From Candidatus Sungiibacteriota bacterium (GTDB taxonomy: Bacteria > Patescibacteriota > Minisyncoccia > Sungbacterales > HO2-52-23): a stretch of 64,000 nucleotides of DNA. The first letter of the stretch is position 1. Each line of letters opens with the position of its first letter. The DNA lies in the NCBI GenBank assembly GCA_016432465.1, contig CP066690.1, positions 317,538-381,537 of the forward strand. Reading direction: 5' to 3'. The notes under the pieces were generated by a model. That model made no database searches. It saw only the letters and a list, made by a program, of their open reading frames with translations, and was not told the origin of the DNA. Of this stretch, positions 3,896 to 39,776 are shown piece after piece. The translations under genes and the position numbers were made by a program.

Positions 3896-4121
3896 AAAAA
3901 CTTCAATCTACAGTAATCCCTTCGGTCTGCGCGGACGGCTCCTGATAAACTTGGGAGACCGGAAGCAAAGGCGTCCCGACTGGTCGGGGTCTGTGACGCA
4001 GAGAGGCTCCGGCCAACCGGAGAACTCAAAGCAACACAGTTCCTCGCGTCAGCGGGGAAGGGAAAGAAACAGTGGCGCCCCAAGCGCCACTTTATGATTA
4101 CCATTACCTTATATACCAAAA

Positions 4122-5312
4122 TCAGTTTGGAACAGGGGGAGTTTCGTTTTTTTCTTCCTTCAACACCCCAAGAGACATCCTGTGTTCTTGAGGATCAATC
4201 AATAAAATCTTAAACTGGTATTCTTTACCAAGTTCCAGCTCCGATCTCATTTTTATTTCTGTGCCAAACTCGGATATGTGAACTAAACCCTGAATTCCTG
4301 ACTCCAGCTGGGCAAAAGACCCAAAGGGGTTAAATTTGGTTACGCGGGCGCGAACCAAATCTCCTTTTTTATACTTTTCAGCTATTTTCACCCAAGGATC
4401 TTCTTTAAGCTGTTTTAAAGAAAGCGATACTTTATCCCCCTGAATGTCAATAATTTTTGCGCTGACCCTCTCCCCGAGTTTCAAAAACTCGCGCGGGTCT
4501 TCAACCAAAGACCAGTCAATTTCCGATACGTGAATCAGGCCCTCAAGTCCGGCCCCTTCGTCAAACCGCATAAACGCACCGAAGTCAACAACCCCCGTTA
4601 TTTCTCCTTCAACCACGTCTCCGATTTTATACTTAGCCAGGGCCGAACGCGTCCCTTCCAGGTCGCGACCGCGCTCGGTGAAAATTAACTTGTCTTCCGC
4701 CGGACTCAAATCAAGTATTTTTACCGTAAGCTTCTGGCCCACCAACTTTTGCAGTTCCTGAAAGATCCTCTCTTTGTCTCCGCCTTCTACCCGGGGGTAA
4801 TTTTTTGCGGAAAGCTGGGAGGCGGGAAGAAACCCCTTTACGCCGCGGGCCTCAAGTATGAGTCCTCCCTTATTGGCTTCCTGAACAGGCAGTTCTAAAA
4901 CCTCTCCCTGCTCCAGCATTTTTTTAAGATCGCTCCAGTTCTTCTCTGTCCCAGCCTCCTTCAGAGAAAGCTCAACATAGCCGTCTTCATTATCCGGATC
5001 AACTACTTTGACGCTTACTATATCGCCGGGTTTTAAATTTTTTATAATATCCTGCGCCGCATAATACTCGCGTCCGTACACAATGCCGCTACCCTGAAAA
5101 CCAATATCAATAAATAATCTGTTAGTCCGCCTTTCAATCACCGCCCCTTCTATAATATCGCCAGCCTTAAAAAGCCTGCTCCCCCCCACGGTTTTCAAAA
5201 GTAATTCCATGGGGTGTTTGCCGTGTAAAGACGTATCGGCGCTGGTTTTGTTATTATTTCCAGTTATCTCTACCATCTTGGTGAGTATACGGGATAAAAC
5301 TTTACCTAGCAA
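4122..5312 (-). CDS. rpsA: 30S ribosomal protein S1 (four S1 domains)
   Basis: Repeated S1-domain signatures (GDIIEGAVIE..., GDIVSVKVV..., GDVVEGEITGVVDFGAF..., GDLVRARVTKFNPFGSFAQL); exact start uncertain (several in-frame Met). Confidence 0.75.
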   Translation of the reverse strand: MLGKVLSRILTKMVEITGNNNKTSADTSLHGKHPMELLLKTVGGSRLFKAGDIIEGAVIERRTNRLFIDIGFQGSGIVYGREYYAAQDIIKNLKPGDIVSVKVVDPDNEDGYVELSLKEAGTEKNWSDLKKMLEQGEVLELPVQEANKGGLILEARGVKGFLPASQLSAKNYPRVEGGDKERIFQELQKLVGQKLTVKILDLSPAEDKLIFTERGRDLEGTRSALAKYKIGDVVEGEITGVVDFGAFMRFDEGAGLEGLIHVSEIDWSLVEDPREFLKLGERVSAKIIDIQGDKVSLSLKQLKEDPWVKIAEKYKKGDLVRARVTKFNPFGSFAQLESGIQGLVHISEFGTEIKMRSELELGKEYQFKILLIDPQEHRMSLGVLKEEKNETPPVPN

Positions 5313-6429: not shown

Positions 6430-9400
6430 ATGAACATAGGCAGAATTCAACAAAGAGAAATAGTGGAGGAGATGCGCGAGTCGTACCTTGACTACGCCAT
6501 GTCGGTCATTGTTGCTCGCGCGCTTCCCGACGTAAGAGACGGCCTGAAACCAGTGCACCGCCGGATTTTGTATTCAATGCATGAACTTGGCCTGACGCAT
6601 TCAGCAAAAACAAGAAAATGCGCAACGATTATCGGAGACGTATTGGGTAAATACCATCCTCATGGCGACGTGGCGGTTTATGATGCGCTGGTGCGCATGG
6701 CGCAAGAATTTTCACTTCGTTATCCCCTCGTTGAGGGGCAGGGAAATTTTGGTTGTTTCACGCAAGATACAAAAGTAAAACTCACCGATGGGCGGGATCT
6801 TTCATTCGGAGAGTTGGCGGAGGAACTCAAGACCGGAAAAAAGAATTATACATACACCGTGAACAGTCTTGGGCTTGTTGGTCTCGCGGAAATAAAACAT
6901 CCGCGTCTTACGAAAAAGAAGGCCCGTGTTATCACCGTTGTTTTAGATAACGGAGAAACAATACGCTGTACGCCCGATCACCGATTTATGATGCGAGATG
7001 GAACATATAAAGAAGCCGGGTCCCTTACGGAACATGACTCGTTGATGCCGCTCTACCAAAAACTATCAACGAAAACAGACAGACTGCAACGGGAAGGATA
7101 CCTATTGGTGTACCAGCCCAAAAAAGACGAATGGGTTCCGGCTCACCACTTGGCTGACAACTATAATCTGACGCGCCATATCTACCAAAAAAATGCCGGC
7201 CGCGTACGGCATCATGTGGACTTTAACAAACTCAACAATAACCCGGACAATGTCAAAAGGCTTGGCTGGGGCGAACATTGGAAAATCCACTATACACATG
7301 CGGCAAAACAACACCAAAAACCGGAATATCGGGAAAAAATCGCGTACGGGCGACGGATGTATTGGGCGGACGAGAAAAACAAAGAACACCACCGAAGCTT
7401 ACTTGCGGAGCGAAATCGCGTTAACTGGCAAAATCCCGAGTACCGAGAACGAATGAAGACATTCCTAAGTCAAGTCAACACCGAATATGTCAAGAAGCAT
7501 CCGGAAAAGAGGAACGAGTTTAGCGAGCGGGCAACACGAACGCTCAAACGCCTGTGGCAAGATCCAGAGTACCGGGCGACGATGCATCAAAAAATCATCA
7601 AAGGGAACAAAAATCATGTCAGCAACAAAACAGGAAAGCTAAAATTTTTAAACATTTGTAAAGAAACACTGAATCGTTTTCAGATACTTGAAGAAAAAGT
7701 ATATGAGCAAGCGCGTAAAGAGGTATATCCATATGGACGGGCGCCTTTATGGAAAACCGGATTGCAAAAATACTTTGCCGGAGATTCAAACCTTGTTCAT
7801 CAGGAATTGTTTAAAAATCACCGAGTTATAAGGATTGAGGACAAAAATGAGTACGAAGACGTTTTTGATCTAACCGTTGACGGAACTCATAATTTTGCGT
7901 TAGCAGCAGGTGTTTTTGTACATAATTCAATTGATGGGGACGCCGCCGCACACTATCGCTATACCGAAGCCCGCATGACCAGAATTGCCGAAGAGCTCCT
8001 GCGCGACATTGAAAAAAATACAGTTGAATTTCGCGACAACTACGATGCCACCCGTAAAGAACCCGTAGTACTTCCTGCGGCTCTTCCCGCTCTCCTGCTT
8101 AACGGAACTCTGGGAATAGCGGTGGGAATGGCAACCAGTATTCCTCCGCATAATCTTGGCGAGGTAACTGCGGCCCTGATCCACTTTAGCGACCACCCCA
8201 AGGCCTCGCTGGAGGATCTAATGGAGTTTATCAAGGGGCCGGACTTCCCCACCGGAGGAATAATTTTTGACGAAAAAGAAATCCGCGCCTCTTACGCATC
8301 GGGCAAGGGGGCCATTTTAAATCGTGGTGTGGCCGAGATTGAAGAGGGCGGCCGCGGAGCGCACCAAATTGTAATCACGGAGATTCCGTATCAGGTAAAC
8401 AAGGCCGAACTAATAGAAACCATGGCCGGTCTCGTGCAGGAAAAGAAAATTGAGGGCATACGAGATATTCGTGACGAATCCGACCGGCAAGGCATGCGCA
8501 TAGTGATTGAACTTAAACAAGATGCGCATCCGCAGAAGGTTTTAAACAATCTTTACCGGCACACTGACCTTGAAAAAACGTTTCACCTAAACATGCTTGC
8601 TTTGGTGGATGGGATTCAGCCGCAGGTACTCTCCATAAAAGAGGTGCTGGAAGAATTTCTGAAGCACCGAAACCAAGTAGTAACCCGCCGCACCAAGTTT
8701 GACCTGACCCGAACCCGCGAGCGCCTGCATATTTTAGAAGGACTGAAAAAGGCGCTGGACCACATTGACCGCGTAATTGAAACTATTAAAAAATCCAGAG
8801 ACCGCGATGAAGCGCGTGAAAATTTAATGAAGAAATTTGCCCTAACGGAGCTGCAGGCCGCCGCAATTCTAGAGATGAAACTGCAGACGCTGGCCGGTCT
8901 TGAACGACAAAAAATAGAGGATGAACTCAAAGAAAAGACGGCACTGGCCAAAAATCTTGAGGCCCTGCTGAAAGATCCTAAGAAAATCACAGATGTTATA
9001 AAAAGGGAATTGCACGAAGTAAGGGAAAAATACGGAGACGAGCGAAAAACTAAAGTCATAAAAACATCCCCCAAAGAACTTTCCGAGGAAGATTTGATTC
9101 CCGCAGAAGAGGTAGTGGTGGTGCTGACTCGCGGCGGTTACATAAAACGGATAAAACCGGAACAATACAAAATGCAGAAGCGCGGCGGTAAGGGGCTTAT
9201 CGGGATGGAGACCAAAGAGGAAGACATGGTGGAACATTTGCTAACCTGCAATACTCACTCCAACCTTCTTTTCTTCACCAGTTCCGGAAAGATTTATCAG
9301 GTTCGGACCTACGAAATTCCGGAAGGAAGTCGTATCTCCAAAGGCAAGGCAATCTTTAACTTTTTGGCGCTTTCCAGCAATGAGCAGATAAACTCCCTTC

Positions 9401-10041
9401 TGGCCACTGCCGGAGCGAAAAAGGGAGAACGCGAGGGTTACATAGTAATGGTGACCAAAGACGGCGTCATCAAAAAGGTTACAGCTTCGGCTTTTGAGAA
9501 CGTCCGCCGCTCAGGACTAATTGCTCTAACCCTAAGGGGCGGCGATCTGCTGCGTTGGGCCAAACTAACGAGCGGCTCTGACGAACTTATACTGGTTACC
9601 AAAAAGGGACAGTCCATAAGATTTGCAGAAAAAGATGTGCGTCCCATGGGACGACAAGCCAGCGGTGTTCGGGCCGTACGTCTGAAAAAAGGTGATGAGG
9701 TGGTGGGTATGGACGTAATCAATAAGGAACAAGTAGCCAACGGTAAATTGCTGGTCATAATGGAGAACGGATTTGGCAAACACACGTTAGTTAAACAATA
9801 CAAAAGGCAACGCAGGGGCGGATCAGGCATAAAAACTGCCAAAATTACTTCCAAAACAGGAAATGTTGTCGGGGCGCGTATCGTGGACAAGGAAGAAACG
9901 GAACTAATCACTATATCCAAAAAAGGTCAGGTTATCCACACTACCCTTGCGGCCATACCCGTGCTCGGCCGCGCCACCCAAGGAGTAAGAATTATGAAAT
10001 TGGAAACAGGAGACGCGGTGGCTTCTATTACTGCGCTGTAA
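6430..10041 (+). CDS. gyrA: DNA gyrase subunit A, interrupted by an in-frame intein
   Basis: N-terminus ...[17 protein letters not shown]...GKYHPHGD...GQGNFG, then C-extein [17 protein letters not shown] (catalytic Tyr region), GyrA box and C-terminal beta-pinwheel repeats; 1203 aa against ~810 aa expected without the insert. Confidence 0.9.
6754..7926 (+). mobile_element. Intein (391 aa) in gyrA carrying an HNH-type homing-endonuclease region and NUMOD-like repeats
   Basis: Starts with Cys right after GNFG (tgt at 6754); block-B TPDH; ends VFVHN (His-Asn) followed by +1 Ser (tca 7927); internal [27 protein letters not shown] (I-HmuI-like HNH) plus three ~30-aa repeats ending NPEYRE(K/R)M / DPEYRATM. 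Confidence 0.8.
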
Positions 10042-13797: not shown

Positions 13798-14046
13798 ATG
13801 ACAACCATTGCCGACCTCATTAAAAAAATAGAGATCGGACTTTTGAATCCGCTGATAAGTCTGCTTTTTGTTGTAGCCACGGTTGTTTTTTTCTGGGGCA
13901 TTATTCAGTATGTGATCGGTGGTCATGGAGACCCCAAAAAACTTGACCAAGGTAAACAGGCAATGTTTTGGGGAATTATCGGAATGTTTATCATGCTCTC
14001 GGCTTGGGCCATTGTAAATATTCTTGCGAATTTTTTTAAACTCTGA
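13798..14046 (+). CDS. TrbC/VirB2-like pilin family small membrane protein (paralog)
   Basis: 82 aa, two TM helices with a GGHGDPKKLDQGKQA loop; same architecture as the two upstream genes. Confidence 0.6.
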   Translation: MTTIADLIKKIEIGLLNPLISLLFVVATVVFFWGIIQYVIGGHGDPKKLDQGKQAMFWGIIGMFIMLSAWAIVNILANFFKL

Positions 14047-14143
14047 GAAGTAATTAGGTGATAATCCAACCCCGCCCTTTGGGTTTCTCCCCAAAGGGCG
14101 GGGTTGAAATTTGAGCAATTTTTGACTATGATAAAGTTGTGGG

Positions 14144-14250
14144 CTCGCCCCGTTAGAGATTTAGATTGGATATCCTGGTGCACGTTTAAGAACCGAAGTT
14201 AAAGGTATGACTTCTTTTTAGGGCTCACCCTACATCTCTAACGGGGCGAG
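14144..14250. repeat. MITE-like inverted-repeat element (copy Z) whose right arm abuts or overlaps the tRNA-Leu 5' end
   Basis: CTCGCCCCGTTAGAGAT (14144-14160) and ATCTCTAACGGGGCGAG (14234-14250) are exact reverse complements (17 bp) around a ~73-nt core; the same terminal motif recurs at 39025-39143, 39675-39776 and 34954-34967. Confidence 0.6.
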
Positions 14251-14327
14251 TAGCCGAATTGGTATAGGCGCTAGGCCTAGGACCTAGTGGTCGAAAGGCC
14301 GTGGAGGTTCGAGTCCTCTCTCGCCCA
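14244..14327 (+). tRNA. tRNA-Leu (anticodon UAG), type II with long variable arm
   Basis: Acceptor GGGCGAG/CTCGCCC+A, anticodon stem CTAGG/CCTAG, loop CCTAGGA, variable arm GGTC-GAAA-GGCC, T-arm GGAGG-TTCGAGT-CCTCT; position 33 reads C rather than U, which is unusual. Confidence 0.65.
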
Positions 14328-14367
14328 TTTGCCCGTGTAGTTTAACGGCAAAACAACCCCACCCTTT

Positions 14368-14440
14368 GCCCAAGTAGCTCAGTTGGTAGAGCACGATCAT
14401 GGTAAGATCGGGGTCCGCGGTTCGATTCCGCGCTTGGGCT
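14368..14440 (+). tRNA. tRNA-Thr (anticodon GGU)
   Basis: GCCCAAG-TA-GCTC-AGTTGGTA-GAGC-A-CGATC-ATGGTAA-GATCG-GGGTC-CGCGG-TTCGATT-CCGCG-CTTGGGC-T; all stems perfect. Confidence 0.85.
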
Positions 14441-14527
14441 GAACAAAGAGCGGGGTAAACGAGAGTTCAACTCTCTCCTCGGGCTCTGTTAAACATCGAG
14501 TGTTTAACATTAATTAATCAAATAGCT

Positions 14528-14656
14528 ATGGCCCAACTTAATCTCATACGATTGCAGTGTACTGTCTGCAAACGCATCAAAGCCGACGCGTCGGTCGGCT
14601 CCCCGACTTCACTATCGTATTTAAGATCGTGCGTCGGGGCTACTGGACTTAAATAA
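14528..14656 (+). pseudogene. 5' partial duplicate of rpmG (L33), frame-continued into unrelated sequence
   Basis: MAQLNLIRLQCTVCKR matches the L33 N-terminus MPQLNLIRLQCTTCKR of the intact gene 133 nt downstream (~75% nt identity over the first 48 nt); the second CxxC zinc-ribbon half is absent. Confidence 0.5.
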
Positions 14657-14660
14657 AAAT

Positions 14661-14822
14661 ATGCCGCAACTAAATTTAATAAGGTTACAGTGTACCACTT
14701 GTAAACGCTATAACTACTGGACGCGAAAAAATATCCGCAAAGTTGAGCGGAAACTTCAGTTTAAAAAATACTGCAAATGGGATCGGAAACATACACTACA
14801 TAAAGAAGCCAAGAAGACGTAG
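14661..14822 (+). CDS. rpmG: 50S ribosomal protein L33
   Basis: 53-aa ORF MPQLNLIRLQCTTCKRYNYWTRKNIRKVERKLQFKKYCKWDRKHTLHKEAKKT with CxxC...C L33 zinc-ribbon pattern; below the 60-aa cut-off of the ORF track. Confidence 0.8.
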   Translation: MPQLNLIRLQCTTCKRYNYWTRKNIRKVERKLQFKKYCKWDRKHTLHKEAKKT

Positions 14823-14836
14823 CTGTTCCTGAAAGT

Positions 14837-15001
14837 GGGTGCGTGGCGCAATTGGTGGCGCGTCGGTCTCCAATCCCGCCCTTTCATTGGGGGTGTAAGC
14901 TTAGCGGTAAACTGCGGGTCTCCAAAACCCGACTCCTCCGTTCGAATCGGAGCACCCCCGTTGAAAGGGCGGGACGAGCCCTGGCGCACCCGATACTAAA
15001 A
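14837..15001 (+). other. tRNA-like palindromic shell enclosing tRNA-Trp (5' half of a second tRNA-Trp-like sequence plus complementary 3' acceptor strand)
   Basis: GGGTGCG-TG-GCGC-AATTGGT-GGCGC-G-TCGGT-CTCCAAT (acceptor, perfect D-arm, anticodon stem/loop with CCA) at 14837-14884; far side CGCACCC (14995-15001) is complementary to GGGTGCG; inner 12-bp inverted repeat CCCGCCCTTTCA (14885-14896) / TGAAAGGGCGGG (14972-14983). Confidence 0.5.
14899..14970 (+). tRNA. tRNA-Trp (anticodon CCA)
   Basis: GGGGGTG-TA-AGCT-TAGCGGTAA-ACT-G-CGGGT-CTCCAAA-ACCCG-ACTC-CTCCG-TTCGAAT-CGGAG-CACCCCC-G; acceptor and anticodon stems perfect. Confidence 0.8.
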
Positions 15002-15102
15002 GATAACCGCAACCTGCGCGGTTATTTTGGTTGGGTTGGGCTGGACTTGATAGAAAGCTGTAAGAAAGCTAACCTAAAGTTTTTCCCGGCACACACGCAC
15101 TA

Positions 15103-15131
15103 TTGACACTTAGAAAGAAGTACGTTACAAT
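15103..15131 (+). promoter_or_regulatory. sigma70-like promoter for 15197..16078
   Basis: TTGACA (15103-15108), 17-nt spacer, TACAAT (15126-15131); RBS GAAAGGAGAG upstream of ATG 15197. Confidence 0.55.
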
Positions 15132-15196
15132 AATAGATAGAGCCGGGGCCAAATCTACGCCGGCTTCAGGAAAAAACTAGAAAGGAGAGTATAGGC

Positions 15197-16078
15197 ATGA
15201 GTAAAACAATGGTTGTTGCCCCAATCATTGGAGCACTCGTAAAGAGCGAGGATATTCTTGGAAAAGATAGAGACTGGAACGCTATCAATGGGGACCAAAG
15301 CTATTTTCTGGAACGGTTCTTTGCTGCCAAAAATGAACTTCCCAGATACTCAGATAAAGAGCTTCGTAGCTGGGTAAGCTGGGTAGCGTCGGAGCTGAAC
15401 GAGATCCTCAAGAAGGAAGGGTTTGACATTCAACTCAAAGACTTCGATCCAAGGACTTTCGGCGTCGTATCGATTCTTGATGTTCTAGTGGAGTGGTTAG
15501 CGGAGGGTAGCAAAGATAACCTTCGGGTCGGAGGTGTTAGTTACCCCGCGGTTAGGATGAAGCCCGCTGCTGAAGTTGATGGCACATTCAAAACCGTCTT
15601 TGAAGTTTATAGCTCACCTCGGCACCGGCATCCAATTGTAGTGCTTCATACAAAGTCTGGCGATAAACTTTACATGACAGTCGCTGATGGAGCCATGGAT
15701 GGTTTCCGTCTCACCACCAAGATCGATGAAATCCGCGGGAGCTTACAGCCCGATAGAACACGCTATACCTATCTGAGGTTTCCGATGGTTGATCTCAACC
15801 AAGAGATAGATATTAGTTGGCTAATCGGGATGTGGACTGGCCAAGATTCCATCTCTCAAGCCCTACAACAAACAAAGTTCAAAATGAACCAGTTGGGGGC
15901 AAGAGTAAAGAGTGCCGTAGCGATTGCAGTGACACGAAGTGTTAATCGGGAGGTTGGACTAGATATTGACCAACCCTTCTACCTCTGGATTGAAAGGGAC
16001 GGTGTTACGGTACCCGTAATGTATGCCTACCTCGATCAAGAGGACTGGAAAAACCCGGGCAATCTATCCGAGATGTAG
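15197..16078 (+). CDS. hypothetical protein (ORFan, appears GC-richer than surroundings)
   Basis: 293-aa ORF with strong RBS and its own promoter immediately downstream of tRNA-Trp; no recognisable motifs. Confidence 0.55.
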   Translation: MSKTMVVAPIIGALVKSEDILGKDRDWNAINGDQSYFLERFFAAKNELPRYSDKELRSWVSWVASELNEILKKEGFDIQLKDFDPRTFGVVSILDVLVEWLAEGSKDNLRVGGVSYPAVRMKPAAEVDGTFKTVFEVYSSPRHRHPIVVLHTKSGDKLYMTVADGAMDGFRLTTKIDEIRGSLQPDRTRYTYLRFPMVDLNQEIDISWLIGMWTGQDSISQALQQTKFKMNQLGARVKSAVAIAVTRSVNREVGLDIDQPFYLWIERDGVTVPVMYAYLDQEDWKNPGNLSEM

Positions 16079-16236
16079 GCACCAAGGGGTGTACGTGAGG
16101 AAACTCCGTACGCCCTATTTTTTATACAAAAGTGTTTGAGAAAGGCGAGTTTGACTTTTTTCTGAAATGGTCTAAACTATAGATAGTTTTGGGGAGACAG
16201 CATAGAACTGTTTTCCCGAGTAATCAACAAGGGAAG

Positions 16237-16404
16237 ATGACCATGGGGTGGACTACATCTTTTCTCTGTTATATCTTAGGACACAAATGGTGTGTCTTAC
16301 CTGACGAGCTTAGATACTCTCTTGTCAGTAGAATGTTGTGTCGGCGTTGTGGTGGTTCTAAGGTAACCGCCATACACGCCGCCTTGGGTGACGAAGACCA
16401 TTAG
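16237..16404 (+). CDS. small Cys-containing hypothetical protein
   Basis: ORF MTMGWTTSFLCYILGHKWCVLPDEL...CRRCGGSK (C/H-rich); preceded by AAGGGAAG and driven by repeated promoter module copy 1; start (16237 or 16243) uncertain. Confidence 0.4.
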   Translation: MTMGWTTSFLCYILGHKWCVLPDELRYSLVSRMLCRRCGGSKVTAIHAALGDEDH

Positions 16405-16410
16405 GGGGGC

Positions 16411-16446
16411 GTATGTGGGGTTGCTCTCACACACGCCCCGTTTTTT
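16411..16446 (+). terminator. Rho-independent terminator
   Basis: GGGGCGT...ACGCCCC 7-bp stem followed by GTTTTTTAT. Confidence 0.55.
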
Positions 16447-16540
16447 ATGCAGAAACTCCACTAAAATCTGGGGATGACCGCCAGCCGACTTCAAAGACTG
16501 ACGCGGATAAGAAAAGAGAAACCGAGCGAACATGCTCGGC

Positions 16541-16960
16541 TTAATCATAAAGTTGCCACGGGAGAGCTTCATTTCTGAAGTTAAACCCACGGGCCACTTT
16601 AAAGGCGGTAGTCAAAAATCTTTTTGTGGGCTCATCAAGCTTCTCAAAACTTTCCAACCAAAGTTTTTTCGTCTCCTCTGGTAATGCATACGCGTCAAAA
16701 TGGGGACTAGTGGTTACCACGCTTCCTGTCAAACATAATGCCCTTATAAACTCCGTTAGTTCTTCAGATTTCGGGTACGGTCCGTCCCAGTCAAATCCGA
16801 GATTCCCAAAGAAGTCGGGCTTTCCCGCTACGTGAGGCATATTCTTTAACTTGTAAAACAGCGTATGCCACGGTTCAGGAATGCGAAACGAAAACGGTAC
16901 CCCACCCTGATGCAACAAAAGAACTAAGTATTTTACAAAATCGCCCAGCGTTACTTCCAT
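16541..16960 (-). CDS. hypothetical protein
   Basis: 139-aa ORF; no recognisable motifs. Confidence 0.45.
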   Translation of the reverse strand: MEVTLGDFVKYLVLLLHQGGVPFSFRIPEPWHTLFYKLKNMPHVAGKPDFFGNLGFDWDGPYPKSEELTEFIRALCLTGSVVTTSPHFDAYALPEETKKLWLESFEKLDEPTKRFLTTAFKVARGFNFRNEALPWQLYD

Positions 16961-17452
16961 TCAAGTCTCCCTGCAAAATCTATCTACGAGTATACTAGCT
17001 TACTGCTTTATAAGTAGCAACCCAGTGTATAATGCAACCCAATTTTGGACTCTTGAGGGGAAGTCAAACTTCCCTGAGGCAAATAAATTGGTAATGACTC
17101 GGGCTGAAGCGTCAGCATAAATTGTATCAGTTAAAGTCGTTTTTATGTTTACGGGGTTTTACGAGGTTCAACCTCGTAAATAAGGATTTATCTTAACATT
17201 CATTAGACGATCGTCCATAGAGTGTTAAGATAAGTTTTAGCCGACTAAAAACCCCTCTTTTACTCCTTCTGCCGGTCGTTCCAACAAACGTCGGCTTTAC
17301 ATTTTTAAAGAGTTTACGAGGTTAAACCTCGTAAGATATACGCGCCGTTCTTTTTTATGCAAAAGTATCCGAAAGAGACGAGTTTGACTTTTTTAGTAGA
17401 CTTGTTAAAATTATATTAGTTCTAGCATCAGTTTACTGGAGGGAGGAAGACC
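16961..17452. repeat. ~490-nt noncoding region packed with hairpins and a duplicated promoter module
   Basis: TACGAGGTT-NN-AACCTCGTA hairpin twice (17167-17187, 17304-17322); ATCTTAACA...TGTTAAGAT inverted repeat; CGCC..TTTTTTATGCAAAAGT...TTGACT module shared with 16112-16180. Confidence 0.5.
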
Positions 17453-17650
17453 ATGGAACGAATGACGGTAAAAAAGAAAGTGGGCGAGACCGATAGAGTT
17501 TTGCTTTATGGGACTGACCATAATTACCACCTTATAGCTCGCACAGTGGATGATGTGGAAGTTGGCGACACGGTGGAATATGAGCCGTATGGGGTGAATT
17601 TTGGTTGGTTCAAGCGAGTAATTTATCGTCCCTCGTCAAAAGCGGTGTGA
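17453..17650 (+). CDS. small hypothetical protein
   Basis: 65-aa ORF with RBS GGAGGGAGGAAGACC directly upstream of ATG 17453; downstream of repeated promoter module copy 3 (TTGACT, 16 nt, TAAAAT). Confidence 0.5.
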   Translation: MERMTVKKKVGETDRVLLYGTDHNYHLIARTVDDVEVGDTVEYEPYGVNFGWFKRVIYRPSSKAV

Positions 17651-17728
17651 TAATATCAATCCGCTTTTTCATTTGATAATAGCTAAATTAAATGATAACT
17701 TTGGAACGAAGAACTCTTCATCCCCCAT

Positions 17729-18259
17729 ATGGCTTCTCTCTTTTTTATTTTTATAACTTTGGTGCTTGCCGGGGCGGTTTTATTTTTAATTATTGAGTTT
17801 TACGTGGTAATAATAGGAGAATTTTTTGGGGCCCCATACGTAAAATCTAAAAAAGACAAAATAAAAACAATGCTGGAGCTTGCCCAGATTAAACCCGGAG
17901 AAAAGGTGATTGATCTTGGTTCGGGAGACGGTTCTCTTGTGACTGAAGCCGCGGGGCGCGGCGCAGAAGCAATTGGTGTTGAAATAAACCCCTTTCTTGT
18001 CTGGTACTCAAGATGGCGTATCAAAAAAGCCAATCTTCAGGATAAGACAAAGATTATCCGCGGCGACTTCAGAAACTTTTCTTTGGATCAGGCGAATGTT
18101 GTTTTTCTTTATCTCTGGCCGGAGACAGTAGCAAAACTTAAAGAAAAACTTATCAGAGAACTGCGGCCGGGAGCAAGGGTTATATCCAACGGTTTTCCTC
18201 TTGCCGGCTGGCACCCTCAAGCCGCAGAAAACGGCGTATTTCTCTACCGGCGCCGCTGA
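17729..18259 (+). CDS. class I SAM-dependent methyltransferase with N-terminal TM helix
   Basis: Motif I VIDLGSGDGSLV; acidic motif II; post-I motif IGVEINP. Confidence 0.6.
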   Translation: MASLFFIFITLVLAGAVLFLIIEFYVVIIGEFFGAPYVKSKKDKIKTMLELAQIKPGEKVIDLGSGDGSLVTEAAGRGAEAIGVEINPFLVWYSRWRIKKANLQDKTKIIRGDFRNFSLDQANVVFLYLWPETVAKLKEKLIRELRPGARVISNGFPLAGWHPQAAENGVFLYRRR

Positions 18260-34878: not shown

Positions 34879-34953
34879 CACATCTAGTTGCCGCGCAAGC
34901 GGCCTTTTTTATTTAAAATCGAGGTTCGTCGTCTATAAAAGTGCATAAGAAGT

Positions 34954-37751: not shown

Positions 37752-38315
37752 ATGAAATTCATTCTTGCGGCGCTTGCTGTTGCGACGGTCATAGCACTGT
37801 CGTCGCAAACAACTGCTCCACCAGAAAAAGAAGCCGGGGATCCCTCAAAACGCAGTCAAGCCGTAAAGGGCGACTGTTGCGGGACTCTCGGACCCTTATC
37901 AGAATCAGTAGTCATTTTTGTAAGGGTTGGAAAAAGCGAGGTAATTCCCATTAAAAGCTATATGCAGTTGTGGTCAATTTATGCTTGGCACAGGATTGAG
38001 AGTGTACCTCGTATCTTAACCGCAAGCTGGTATGGCCCCAGATTTCACAGAAAAAAGACGTGTCATGGCGAACGGTTTAATATGTACAATCTGACGGCTG
38101 CCCACAAAGAACTTCCGGCAGGAACAATGTTAACGCTTAGGAATCCAAAAAATGGGAAAAAGACTTCAGTTAGAATTACCGACTGTGGTCCTTATATTGA
38201 GGGAAGAGAGCTAGACCTTTCTTTTCGTGCAGCTCGTGAGCTTGGATTTGTGAAAACCGGAGTTACGGAACTGATAGTTGAAGAAGTTTCTTTTCCCGCA
38301 CCAAAGAAAAAGTAG
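37752..38315 (+). CDS. RlpA-like double-psi beta-barrel lipoprotein/secreted protein
   Basis: Signal peptide; ASWYGPRFHRKKTCHGERFN...AAHKELPAGTMLTLRNPKNGKKTSVRITDCGPY matches the RlpA/DPBB core. Confidence 0.6.
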   Translation: MKFILAALAVATVIALSSQTTAPPEKEAGDPSKRSQAVKGDCCGTLGPLSESVVIFVRVGKSEVIPIKSYMQLWSIYAWHRIESVPRILTASWYGPRFHRKKTCHGERFNMYNLTAAHKELPAGTMLTLRNPKNGKKTSVRITDCGPYIEGRELDLSFRAARELGFVKTGVTELIVEEVSFPAPKKK

Positions 38316-39024: not shown

Positions 39025-39143
39025 ATCCCGTTAGAAATAGGACGCGGACGGAGTTCTTTACATTTTACTTGTCATTTTTGGGCGAAAGTTACCCTGGAAA
39101 CAAAAGCCGTGTTTGGATACGCGTCCGCGATTTCTAACGGGAT
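39025..39143. repeat. MITE-like inverted-repeat element (copy X)
   Basis: ATCCCGTTAGAAATAGGACGCGGACG ... CGTCCGCGATTTCTAACGGGAT, imperfect ~22-bp terminal inverted repeats. Confidence 0.55.
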
Positions 39144-39674: not shown

Positions 39675-39776
39675 ATCCCGTTAGAGATTTAGGTAATACC
39701 GAAATAATTAATACTCGCACTCCGCCGTCCTTATCGATGTCATAGAGAGCATTGCGTTCCGCATCTCTAACGGGAT
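39675..39776. repeat. MITE-like inverted-repeat element (copy Y)
   Basis: ATCCCGTTAGAGAT ... ATCTCTAACGGGAT, perfect 14-bp terminal inverted repeats around a ~74-nt core. Confidence 0.55.

Follow-up and report, generated by a model that had tools for sequence, protein, structure and literature searches.

The window analysed here is a 64,000-nt stretch of contig CP066690.1 of Candidatus Sungiibacteriota bacterium, and the feature under study is an intact tRNA-Trp gene nested within the remains of a second tRNA-Trp gene, the two together occupying positions 14837–14992 downstream of rpmG. The features of the two genes lie on the + strand; all were read directly from the sequence unless other evidence is given. 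The outer, older gene is represented on the left by tRNA positions 1–37 (14837–14873), which score 20.0 bits as a 3'-truncated tRNA. This part comprises the acceptor 5' strand GGGTGCG (14837–14843), U8 and G9 (14844–14845), a D arm GCGC-AATTGGTG-GCGC with an 8-nt loop (14846–14861), G26 (14862), the anticodon-stem 5' strand TCGGT (14863–14867) and the anticodon loop CTCCAA (14868–14873; the next base is T), with CCA in register followed by A37. There follow the left arm of an inverted repeat, TCCCGCCCTTTCA (14874–14886), a TT spacer (14887–14888), the inner tRNA-Trp(CCA) (14889–14960), a single T (14961) and the right arm of the repeat, TGAAAGGGCGGGA (14962–14974). Beyond the right arm lie a residue of the outer gene, CGAGCCCTGG (14975–14984), and the outer acceptor 3' strand CGCACCC (14985–14991) with a discriminator G at 14992; this strand is paired in both the minimum-free-energy and the centroid folds. 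A terminator-like hairpin at 15003–15025, matched by eye to its homologue in a related locus (L016; loci fetched for comparison carry the prefix L), closes the tRNA-Leu/tRNA-Thr/rpmG/tRNA-Trp unit. The part bounded by the two arms, TCCCGCCCTTTCATT-tRNA-GTTGAAAGGGCGGGA (14874–14974), is a cassette of 101 nt that contains no open reading frame (ORF). Its junctions read CTCCAATCCCGCCCTTTCA and TGAAAGGGCGGGACGAG, with breaks at 14873/14874 and 14974/14975, and an uninterrupted gene of the outer type would read GGGTGCGTGGCGCAATTGGTGGCGCGTCGGTCTCCAAAACCGA...CGCACCCG.

The inner gene is a canonical tRNA-Trp(CCA). It matches the Rfam tRNA family at 14889–14960 with 48.2 bits against a gathering score of 29, is called by ARAGORN (14888–14961) with the anticodon CCA in register, and has a discriminator G at 14960 and no encoded CCA end. 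A preliminary description of the locus had recognized an intact tRNA-Trp inside a tRNA-Trp-like shell, and this is confirmed; it also rightly took the inner gene to be complete and canonical, but the coordinates it gave, 14899–14970, are ten bases too high. The inner gene shares its sequence type with the tRNA-Trp of L005, L007, L014 and L016 (47.9–49.7 bits) and is presumably functional. In Rfam scans of the whole window, and in a permissive scan of the region (E <= 10), only the inner tRNA was found, with no intron, ribozyme or small RNA family.

The repeat that brackets the inner gene was correctly noticed in the preliminary description, although its arms are perfectly complementary over 13 of 13 nt rather than 12 bp. 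Stacked on the inner acceptor stem, the repeat forms a 22-nt helix with 91% complementarity, and the predicted junction structure is a 13-bp helix with a CAA bulge on one side and a 1-nt bulge on the other. The outer CGCACCC, as had been proposed, is the complement of the outer acceptor at 14837–14843 in all seven positions, and the G that follows is also the discriminator base of the inner tRNA-Trp and of the tRNA-Trp of relatives. The outer 5' part was not called as a gene by ARAGORN or Rfam. Scanned by itself as a 3'-truncated tRNA, it aligns to model positions 1–41, and its 20.0 bits exceed the 14.2 bits of the inner tRNA-Trp 5' half in an identical scan. It displays U8, A14, G18G19, a 4-bp D stem, U33, the anticodon and a purine at position 37, all hallmarks of tRNA. 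The fold of 14825–15005 has a free energy of -84.8 kcal/mol (z = -4.84), and none of 200 shuffled sequences was equally stable. By rough estimate, the chance of finding the specific 7-mer within about 40 nt is ~0.002, and that of a perfect 13-nt inverted repeat at these offsets is ~1e-7. A chance origin of the shell and repeat is excluded.

The outer tRNA-Trp gene is dead: between the right arm of the repeat and the outer acceptor strand there are only 10 nt, which leaves no T arm. In intact tRNA-Trp genes that share the GCGTCGGTCTCCAA arm, AACCGA-AGG and the T arm come next, and CGA at 14975–14977 fits the end of the ACCGA expected as the anticodon-stem 3' strand. Positions 38–40 and the T arm of the outer gene have been lost. 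When the cassette was excised in silico, no tRNA was called by ARAGORN at the tRNA-Trp locus. An intact donor of the outer tRNA type was sought in IMG/VR, where the anticodon arm GCGTCGGTCTCCAAAACCGA is common among tRNA-Trp genes; none shares the outer D arm and acceptor. A translation of the spurious 87-aa ORF that crosses the shell, used as a query against the protein collection, recovered no identical shells.

Related rpmG loci were retrieved through the L33 protein (58–89% identity), and 18 loci from Patescibacteria were inspected. The closest L33 proteins, at 89% identity, belong to Candidatus Sungiibacteriota and Parcubacteria metagenome-assembled genomes. The neighbourhood in the window (gyrA, a methyltransferase, pilins of the type IV secretion system type, tRNA-Leu, tRNA-Thr, rpmG and tRNA-Trp) is syntenic with L001. 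A plain tRNA-Trp follows rpmG in 15 of the 18 loci, and no tRNA-Trp lies within 330 nt of rpmG in the remaining three (L019, L023 and L053). The shell is present in none of the 18, including those with the inner tRNA type, and is therefore not a conserved leader/trailer. Nor was a leader/trailer helix retained at orthologous positions, with covariation, seen among these loci; this is the comparison with orthologous rpmG-tRNA-Trp loci proposed in the preliminary description, and the large processing scaffold it offered as an alternative origin for the shell is left unsupported. In L016 the terminator hairpin stands directly after the plain tRNA-Trp, and in the window the homologous hairpin stands after the outer 3' end (ATACTAAAAGATAACCGC...GCGGTTATTTT against AGTCCAAAGATAGCCGCC...GCGGTTATTTTT, matched by eye). 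This arrangement indicates that the outer gene occupies the ancestral position and that the inner gene is the newcomer.

The tRNA-Trp genes linked to rpmG in L001–L018 belong to several quite different sequence types, which are patchily distributed and do not track L33 identity. For example, L005 and L006, both with 89% L33 identity, have different tRNA-Trp types. This patchiness is consistent with frequent allele replacement.

A second nested gene, a tRNA-Thr at 14331–14485, lies upstream in the same unit, and here a cassette stands in place of the exact anticodon arm of the outer gene. The outer 5' part (14331–14354) corresponds to positions 1–24 of a tRNA-Thr of the type found in L009, with 21 of 24 matches by hand count, and the outer variable loop, T arm and acceptor (14457–14485) match L009 in 27 of 29 positions, also by hand count. 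Between them are the left arm CCCCACCCTTT (14357–14367), an intact inner tRNA-Thr(GGT) (14368–14440) and the right arm AAAGAGCGGGG (14445–14455), the repeat having decayed to 9 pairs out of 11. The outer tRNA-Thr type of the window is the inner type in L280, which indicates a succession of replacements.

The rpmG gene shows a related arrangement. A 5' fragment of the gene, rpmG* (14528–14656), lies directly upstream of intact rpmG (14661–14822) and is split by a 58-nt double-hairpin element, here called E (14582–14639). The first 16 codons of rpmG* specify the same residue as rpmG in 14 cases at only 73% DNA identity, so the differences are mostly synonymous. In L016 (2374–2820) the same rpmG fragment with E is followed by a full rpmG and then by a 3' rpmG fragment, the protein sequence of which is identical to the C-terminus of the window rpmG, so that rpmG is nested too. 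The rpmG*/rpmG pair follows the same logic as the nested tRNAs, and the rpmG 5' duplicate mentioned in the preliminary description is both real and a product of the same kind of process. An origin by microhomology-mediated tandem duplication (AAAAATAT(G)CCGCAA) was set aside, since L016 shares the fragment and E but not the microhomology.

Nested tRNA genes were also found elsewhere. When 342 tRNAs of the fetched loci were surveyed and the candidates followed up, inverted repeats of at least 10 nt abutting a tRNA occurred almost only at nested tRNAs. Ordinary tRNAs in these genomes were without such flanks, and an informal control, the Spirochaete loci from the same scan, gave only one weak and probably spurious candidate. 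In L006 (Parcubacteria GW2011_GWA2_45_30) a tRNA-Thr(GGT) is split in the D loop and reads GCCGATGTAGCTCAG / cttgCCCTCCCACCTTT / intact tRNA-Thr / ttAAAGGTGGGAGGGtgaa / CAGAGC...CATCGGCT, the cassette being CCCTCCCACCTTT, the intact tRNA-Thr and AAAGGTGGGAGGG. The tRNA-Thr of L005 keeps the left half of the L006 arrangement, with the right arm and the outer 3' part gone; its inner tRNA-Thr is nevertheless intact (69.0 bits), so pairing of the arms is dispensable, as would be expected of element ends. Groundwater contigs supply the Thr(TGT), Val, Gly and Lys examples, some of them two or three levels deep. In L018 a Thr(TGT) gene has an insert exactly at 36/37. Further examples are a Val gene in L091 with three generations; a Gly gene in L112 with three to four generations, in which both visible left junctions break after the same TTCCCAAGC; Lys and Val(GAC) genes in L160, the Val arms being CCCAGCCCTTT / AAAGGGCTGGG; an Ile gene in L134 with E in the outer D loop; a Thr gene in L136 with an insert in the D loop; and a Thr gene in L280 with a replaced outer anticodon arm. 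L281 has, at the same rpmG locus as the window, a tRNA-Trp 5' fragment ending ...GGTCTCC, then CCGCCTGCCTTATCATCAA and an intact tRNA-Trp, with a related left end CCCCGCCTGCC. The L281 sequence downstream of the tRNA-Trp calls for caution, as a large inverted duplication of the contig start (1–125 and 545–670) may be an assembly fold-back.

When the inserts were removed in silico, the outer halves in L006, L018 and L112 became ARAGORN-valid tRNAs of the same isoacceptor, with the L018 junction exact at 36/37; these three are single-site insertions into complete genes. The multi-level nesting in L091 and L112 at one tRNA position shows repeated invasion. Contigs of three differently numbered metagenome datasets (L091, L102 and L126) have identical sequence around the copy of E on the 5' side of the L091 nest, and for tRNA-Val the flank scores of L102 and L126 equal those of L091, an agreement that argues against an assembly artefact. 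The position of the insert varies among tRNAs (D loop, 25/26, 35–38 and 40). The comparative data support the proposal in the preliminary description that a tRNA-Trp copy flanked by an inverted repeat was inserted or replaced in the anticodon-loop region and that the locus is a recombination hotspot.

Several other tRNA genes in the fetched loci are irregular. In L005 (1980–2290), past an intact tRNA-Leu, there is a remnant of a second, L006-type tRNA-Leu, the variable/T region of which is interrupted by ~190 nt; this is another overwritten tRNA of the same cluster. In the viral contig L197 (IMG/VR UViG_3300044858_003666, 4120–4240) the tRNA-Trp 5' fragment GTTTAGCGCAGTGGTAGCGCGTCGGTCTCCAAAATCCA runs without a gap into a second tRNA-Trp, which is intact and different. 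The fragment has GCGCGTCGGTCTCCAA in common with the outer shell of the window, and CCAAAATC occurs on both sides of the intact gene. In the intron mode of ARAGORN, tRNA-Thr(GGT) genes with an intervening sequence in the anticodon loop were reported in L010 (2209–2459; 165 nt) and L012 (2123–2411; 217 nt), the latter being named tRNA-His by the program. The intervening sequence contains AAGATACAGTCTAA, which resembles a group I core. The guess that these are group I introns was left unconfirmed, the Rfam Intron_gpI match being below the gathering threshold.

The ends of nested inserts are usually of the form (T)CCC...GGG(A), examples of left ends being TCCCGCCC, CCCCACCC, CCCTCCCACC, CCCAGCCC, CCCCGCACC, CTCCACACC, TCCCGAT and CCCGTTGC, and related cassettes with similar ends are present in other genomes. 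Element E has the structure GCCGAC-GCTTCG-GTCGGC-T-CCCCGAC-tip-GTCGGGG. An exact 25-mer of it was found in 112 metagenome stretches, mostly from groundwater. Its preferred context, ...CTACCAA^CTGAGCTA, is that of tRNA D loops, and it often lies in a tRNA fragment beside an intact copy; it was also found inside protein-coding regions (metagenome contigs L085–L196). Full modules have the order tRNA 5' fragment, E, GIY-YIG ORF of 86–87 aa, intact tRNA, E, tRNA 3' part, as in L147 (634–1330) and L159 (3719–4432, numbered on the reverse-complement strand). The GIY-YIG ORFs of the modules match PF01541 with E ~1e-13. GIY-YIG ORFs also stand after the tRNA-Trp genes of L013 and L281, truncated in the latter.

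The reading preferred here, to which we give a probability of roughly two-thirds, is that a non-autonomous tRNA-Trp cassette of 101 nt entered the resident tRNA-Trp gene at its anticodon loop and took over its function, and that the resident gene is now decaying. The anatomy of the locus, the absence of the shell from orthologous loci, the recurrence of nesting with complete outer genes, the multi-level nests, the graded decay and the dispensable arm in L005 are all observations. The direction of the event (cassette into resident gene), the existence of a cassette family with (T)CCC...GGG(A) ends and the agent are what we infer. The resident gene would have been interrupted between positions 37 and 38 of the anticodon loop by the ORF-less cassette at 14874–14974, with its 13-nt terminal inverted repeats around a complete tRNA-Trp(CCA). 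Such an insertion could be tolerated because the cassette brings a working copy of the gene that it destroys; the genome most likely has a single tRNA-Trp gene, which is assumed from the view that the 64-kb window affords. The resident copy would then have become a pseudogene, with later loss of positions 38–40 and the T arm. The unit is probably cotranscribed with tRNA-Leu, tRNA-Thr and rpmG, from a promoter-like site near 14104 to the hairpin at 15003–15025, and the inner tRNA would be excised by the ordinary tRNA-processing enzymes. The inverted repeat would lengthen the inner acceptor stem to a clamp of ~22 bp, which probably prevents mispairing with the outer 5' half and may serve as a place for double-strand cleavage, while the outer pieces would be inert. 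As for the agent, the best candidate is probably a nuclease that broke the tRNA gene, the break then being repaired with a cassette-bearing donor as template; the alternative is transposition in trans. GIY-YIG nuclease genes at related loci sit in equivalent modules.

A number of observations weigh against insertion of a mobile cassette. The inner tRNA-Trp is the common type in the clade and the outer is the unusual one, which is the reverse of a foreign-into-native picture. In the window tRNA-Thr, the L160 Val and the L280 Thr, it is precisely the anticodon arm of the outer tRNA that has given way to the cassette, the rest of that tRNA being intact. Simple insertion with random decay afterwards would not be expected to leave such a pattern, which hints at a hairpin-for-hairpin swap or at selection for RNA structure. 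The (T)CCC...GGG(A) consensus was curated by eye, and no second copy of the tRNA-Trp repeat arms or of the cassette was found in the 64-kb window or in the 84 fetched loci. There is no target-site duplication of fixed length: the Trp flanks are CAA|...|CGA, L018 has none, L112 possibly has 5 bp and in L006 3 nt are lost. Finally, no GIY-YIG ORF was found in the window, nor was any other nuclease or a transposase, and the cassette contains neither nuclease nor transposase.

Part of the same evidence bears on whether the outer sequence and repeat are instead a selected RNA processing scaffold, a leader-trailer helix or natural tRNA scaffold that presents the inner pre-tRNA to RNase III, RNase P and RNase Z. 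The fold has a very high stability and a ~22-bp clamp coaxial with the inner acceptor stem; the arms vary between cassettes yet stay complementary; and in the window Thr, L160 Val and L280 Thr the repeat helix occupies the site of the outer anticodon arm while the outer acceptor, D and T arms are intact, much as in an engineered tRNA scaffold. We nonetheless consider this origin unlikely, as the shell is absent from all 18 related rpmG loci, the outer tRNA-Trp could not form an L-shaped scaffold without its T arm, L005 has kept the tRNA without the right arm and outer 3' part, the repeat of the window Thr has decayed (9/11 pairs), the insert position differs between tRNAs, and ordinary tRNAs of the same genomes lack such flanks. 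The repeat could still serve secondarily as an RNA clamp. Less likely again is that the shell is the scar of an island or prophage that was integrated at tRNA-Trp by an integrase and later lost. Such integration copies one side of the tRNA and leaves the copies a whole element apart, whereas here both sides flank a complete tRNA within 165 nt, and the outer parts in L006, L018 and L112 are exact complements of a single break point. Integrating elements are known to leave tRNA fragments next to intact tRNA genes (PMC3293823, PMC9897764), the fusion in the viral contig L197 has this form, and L066 carries a typical 18-nt duplicate of a tRNA 3' end. In addition, by comparison with L004 there are ~2.7 kb of extra genes between the window tRNA-Trp and a 176-aa methyltransferase. 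However, no att-like repeat of the shell was found at the far end of these genes within 14200–18000, Pfam searches of the seven ORFs flanking the locus revealed no integrase, and the 13-nt inverted repeat would be left unexplained.

A stitching together of strain variants during assembly or amplification is very improbable. The window probably derives from a metagenome-assembled genome, it has three duplicated features (Thr, rpmG and Trp) within 700 bp, and the large inverted duplication in L281 may be a fold-back. Against this, the same architecture recurs across unrelated projects and assemblers (L006 from GenBank, L018 and L160, L280 from Logan and L281 from JGI), the sequence around the L091 nest is common to contigs of three differently numbered datasets, strain mixing would not give rise to the repeat arms, which are not tRNA sequence, and the outer and inner copies differ at many positions, each acceptor stem being internally consistent. 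It is extremely improbable that the outer gene is still functional, as an intron-containing or split tRNA-Trp with the inner tRNA as its intron, the halves being re-ligated or working as a two-piece tRNA. Positions 38–40 and the whole T arm are absent from it; at the gathering threshold and at E <= 10 alike there was no match to a group I intron or ribozyme family, and with 101 nt the insert falls short of the ~200 nt or more of such introns; neither the sequence nor the fold has bulge-helix-bulge geometry (two 3-nt bulges and a 4-bp helix). In favour of a functional outer gene, Patescibacteria are known to have group I introns in the anticodon loops of their tRNA genes (PMC13011429), nothing but the insert disrupts the outer genes of L006, L018 and L112, and ARAGORN in intron mode calls a tRNA-Thr with a 165-nt intron in L010. 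Set against these is the graded decay of the outer copies in the window and in L005.

Insertion of a self-compensating cassette can be set beside several known arrangements. In rRNA operons the leader-trailer processing stems are substrates of RNase III and, as here, a long helix is formed from sequences that flank a stable RNA; the helix described here, by contrast, is not shared by the orthologous loci and was seen almost exclusively at nested tRNAs. The split, permuted and multi-intron tRNA genes of archaea and algae are processed at bulge-helix-bulge motifs. They resemble the present locus in that the halves are parted by an insert whose flanks pair into a helix near the break, and differ from it in that the host here is a bacterium, no bulge-helix-bulge is formed, the outer gene is incomplete and the insert is a complete tRNA of the same identity.

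Free-standing elements with GIY-YIG homing endonucleases carry a duplicated piece of the target gene, and double-hairpin elements are known in chytrid mitochondria (Allomyces atp6). In the former, gene conversion after the cut copies the element together with a functional replacement of the target and leaves a pseudogene fragment. A functional target copy with displaced target fragments is likewise present here, and related loci have GIY-YIG ORFs of 86–87 aa between a tRNA fragment and an intact tRNA, with E at the junctions; the rpmG*/rpmG pair of the window fits this pattern as well. Unlike such elements, the tRNA-Trp cassette has simple inverted-repeat ends and neither a nuclease gene nor E; the host is bacterial, the target is a tRNA and the whole gene is carried rather than the cut-distal part only. 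A further near parallel is SegB of phage T4, in the tRNA gene cluster (PMC2330249).

Integrative elements such as phages, integrative and conjugative elements and pNOB8-type plasmids use tRNA genes as integration sites and bring part of a tRNA with them (PMC3293823; PMC9897764). As in those cases, mobile DNA would here break a tRNA gene and supply the replacement tRNA sequence, and a displaced fragment of the resident lies beside an intact gene. Unlike in those cases, a complete tRNA is carried in a 101-nt ORF-less inverted-repeat unit nested between both halves of the resident, with no integrase in the scanned flanking ORFs and no direct att repeats within 14200–18000. Miniature inverted-repeat transposable elements and REPIN-like elements are also short and ORF-less, with terminal inverted repeats able to form a long hairpin and family-like end bases, as in (T)CCC...GGG(A), and the window has three ATCCCGTTAGA...TCTAACGGGAT elements besides; the cassettes differ in having no consistent target-site duplication, no identical copies in the window or the fetched loci, a functional tRNA interior and sites in tRNAs of the same isoacceptor. 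Group I introns, some with homing endonucleases, occur in tRNA anticodon loops of Patescibacteria (PMC13011429; bioRxiv 10.1101/2025.07.03.662931). The phylum, the tRNA targets and the neighbourhood of the site (anticodon loop, 35/36 to 37/38) are the same, but the cassette contains no ribozyme (no Rfam match; 101 nt), and function is kept by a spare gene and not by splicing. Literature searches on nested tRNA genes, on GIY-YIG-tRNA cassettes in Patescibacteria and on the sequences of E and the terminal inverted repeats found no description of the arrangement. It is set apart from the closest known phenomena by the combination of a complete same-isoacceptor tRNA, an ORF-less inverted-repeat carrier of ~100 nt, nesting in the resident gene, recurrence and multiple layers.

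Single-copy tRNA genes in tiny genomes are usually deemed immovable housekeeping loci. The present findings suggest that in Patescibacteria such genes are written over again and again by small selfish cassettes, each of which supplies the gene that replaces the old one. It is possible, although we propose it only tentatively, that Patescibacteria harbour an undescribed class of miniature, inverted-repeat-bounded, self-compensating tRNA cassettes, which insert into a gene for the same isoacceptor, or swap with one of its hairpins, and replace the gene they destroy. Repeated invasions would generate tRNA genes nested like Russian dolls and a rapid horizontal turnover of tRNA alleles, with the old tRNA serving in some cases as a natural scaffold and with the small GIY-YIG nucleases and the double-hairpin element as autonomous partners. 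If true, this would account for the patchy spread of tRNA sequence types over close relatives, for tRNA fragments as well as 'missing' or miscalled tRNAs of Patescibacteria genomes, and for the ability of a mobile element to use an essential gene as a safe target with no need of splicing. It would further provide natural examples of a tRNA inside a tRNA scaffold, and would make the small GIY-YIG proteins candidate site-specific nucleases with tRNA-gene targets. For annotation, tRNA-like halves beside tRNA genes in these genomes are to be treated as relics and not as genes. By itself the tRNA-Trp locus is a pseudogene shell, and its interest rests on the process it reveals.

The ORF downstream of the locus had been described as a GC-richer ORFan. 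Its GC content is in fact no higher (0.466 for 15001–16000 against 0.483 for 14001–15000), and it belongs to a widespread serpin-related family with 285 homologues, some of which have serpin Pfam matches, the best identity being 65%; the homologues are unlinked to rpmG or tRNA-Trp and yielded no closer relatives. Between this serpin-like ORF and the methyltransferase there is a gene-poor stretch in which a 44-nt direct repeat, 84% identical (TTTTTTATRCAAAAGT...GAGTTTGACTTTTTT), occurs at 16118–16161 and 17351–17394; it may be a repeated promoter or regulatory region. The GyrA ORF (6430–10041) encodes 1203 aa, compared with 810 aa in L001. Its additional segment, which begins with Cys following GNFG and ends with HN before SIDGD, has the signature of an intein; this putative intein probably carries a homing-endonuclease domain. 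A tRNA-Ile called at 37977–38248 by ARAGORN in intron mode is a false positive inside a coding region.

Three elements of ~100–120 nt bounded by a conserved inverted repeat ATCCCGTTAGARAT...ATYTCTAACGGGAT (ATCCCGTTAGA...TCTAACGGGAT) are present in the window at 14144–14250, 39025–39143 and 39675–39776, and a solo end lies near 34953; the interiors of the three full elements are unrelated. The 9-mer CCCGTTAGA occurs seven times in the window against 0.56 expected. Ends of the same kind were found in many groundwater contigs (L104, L112, L142, L161, L166 and L167), and one copy of the element abuts the 5' end of tRNA-Leu.

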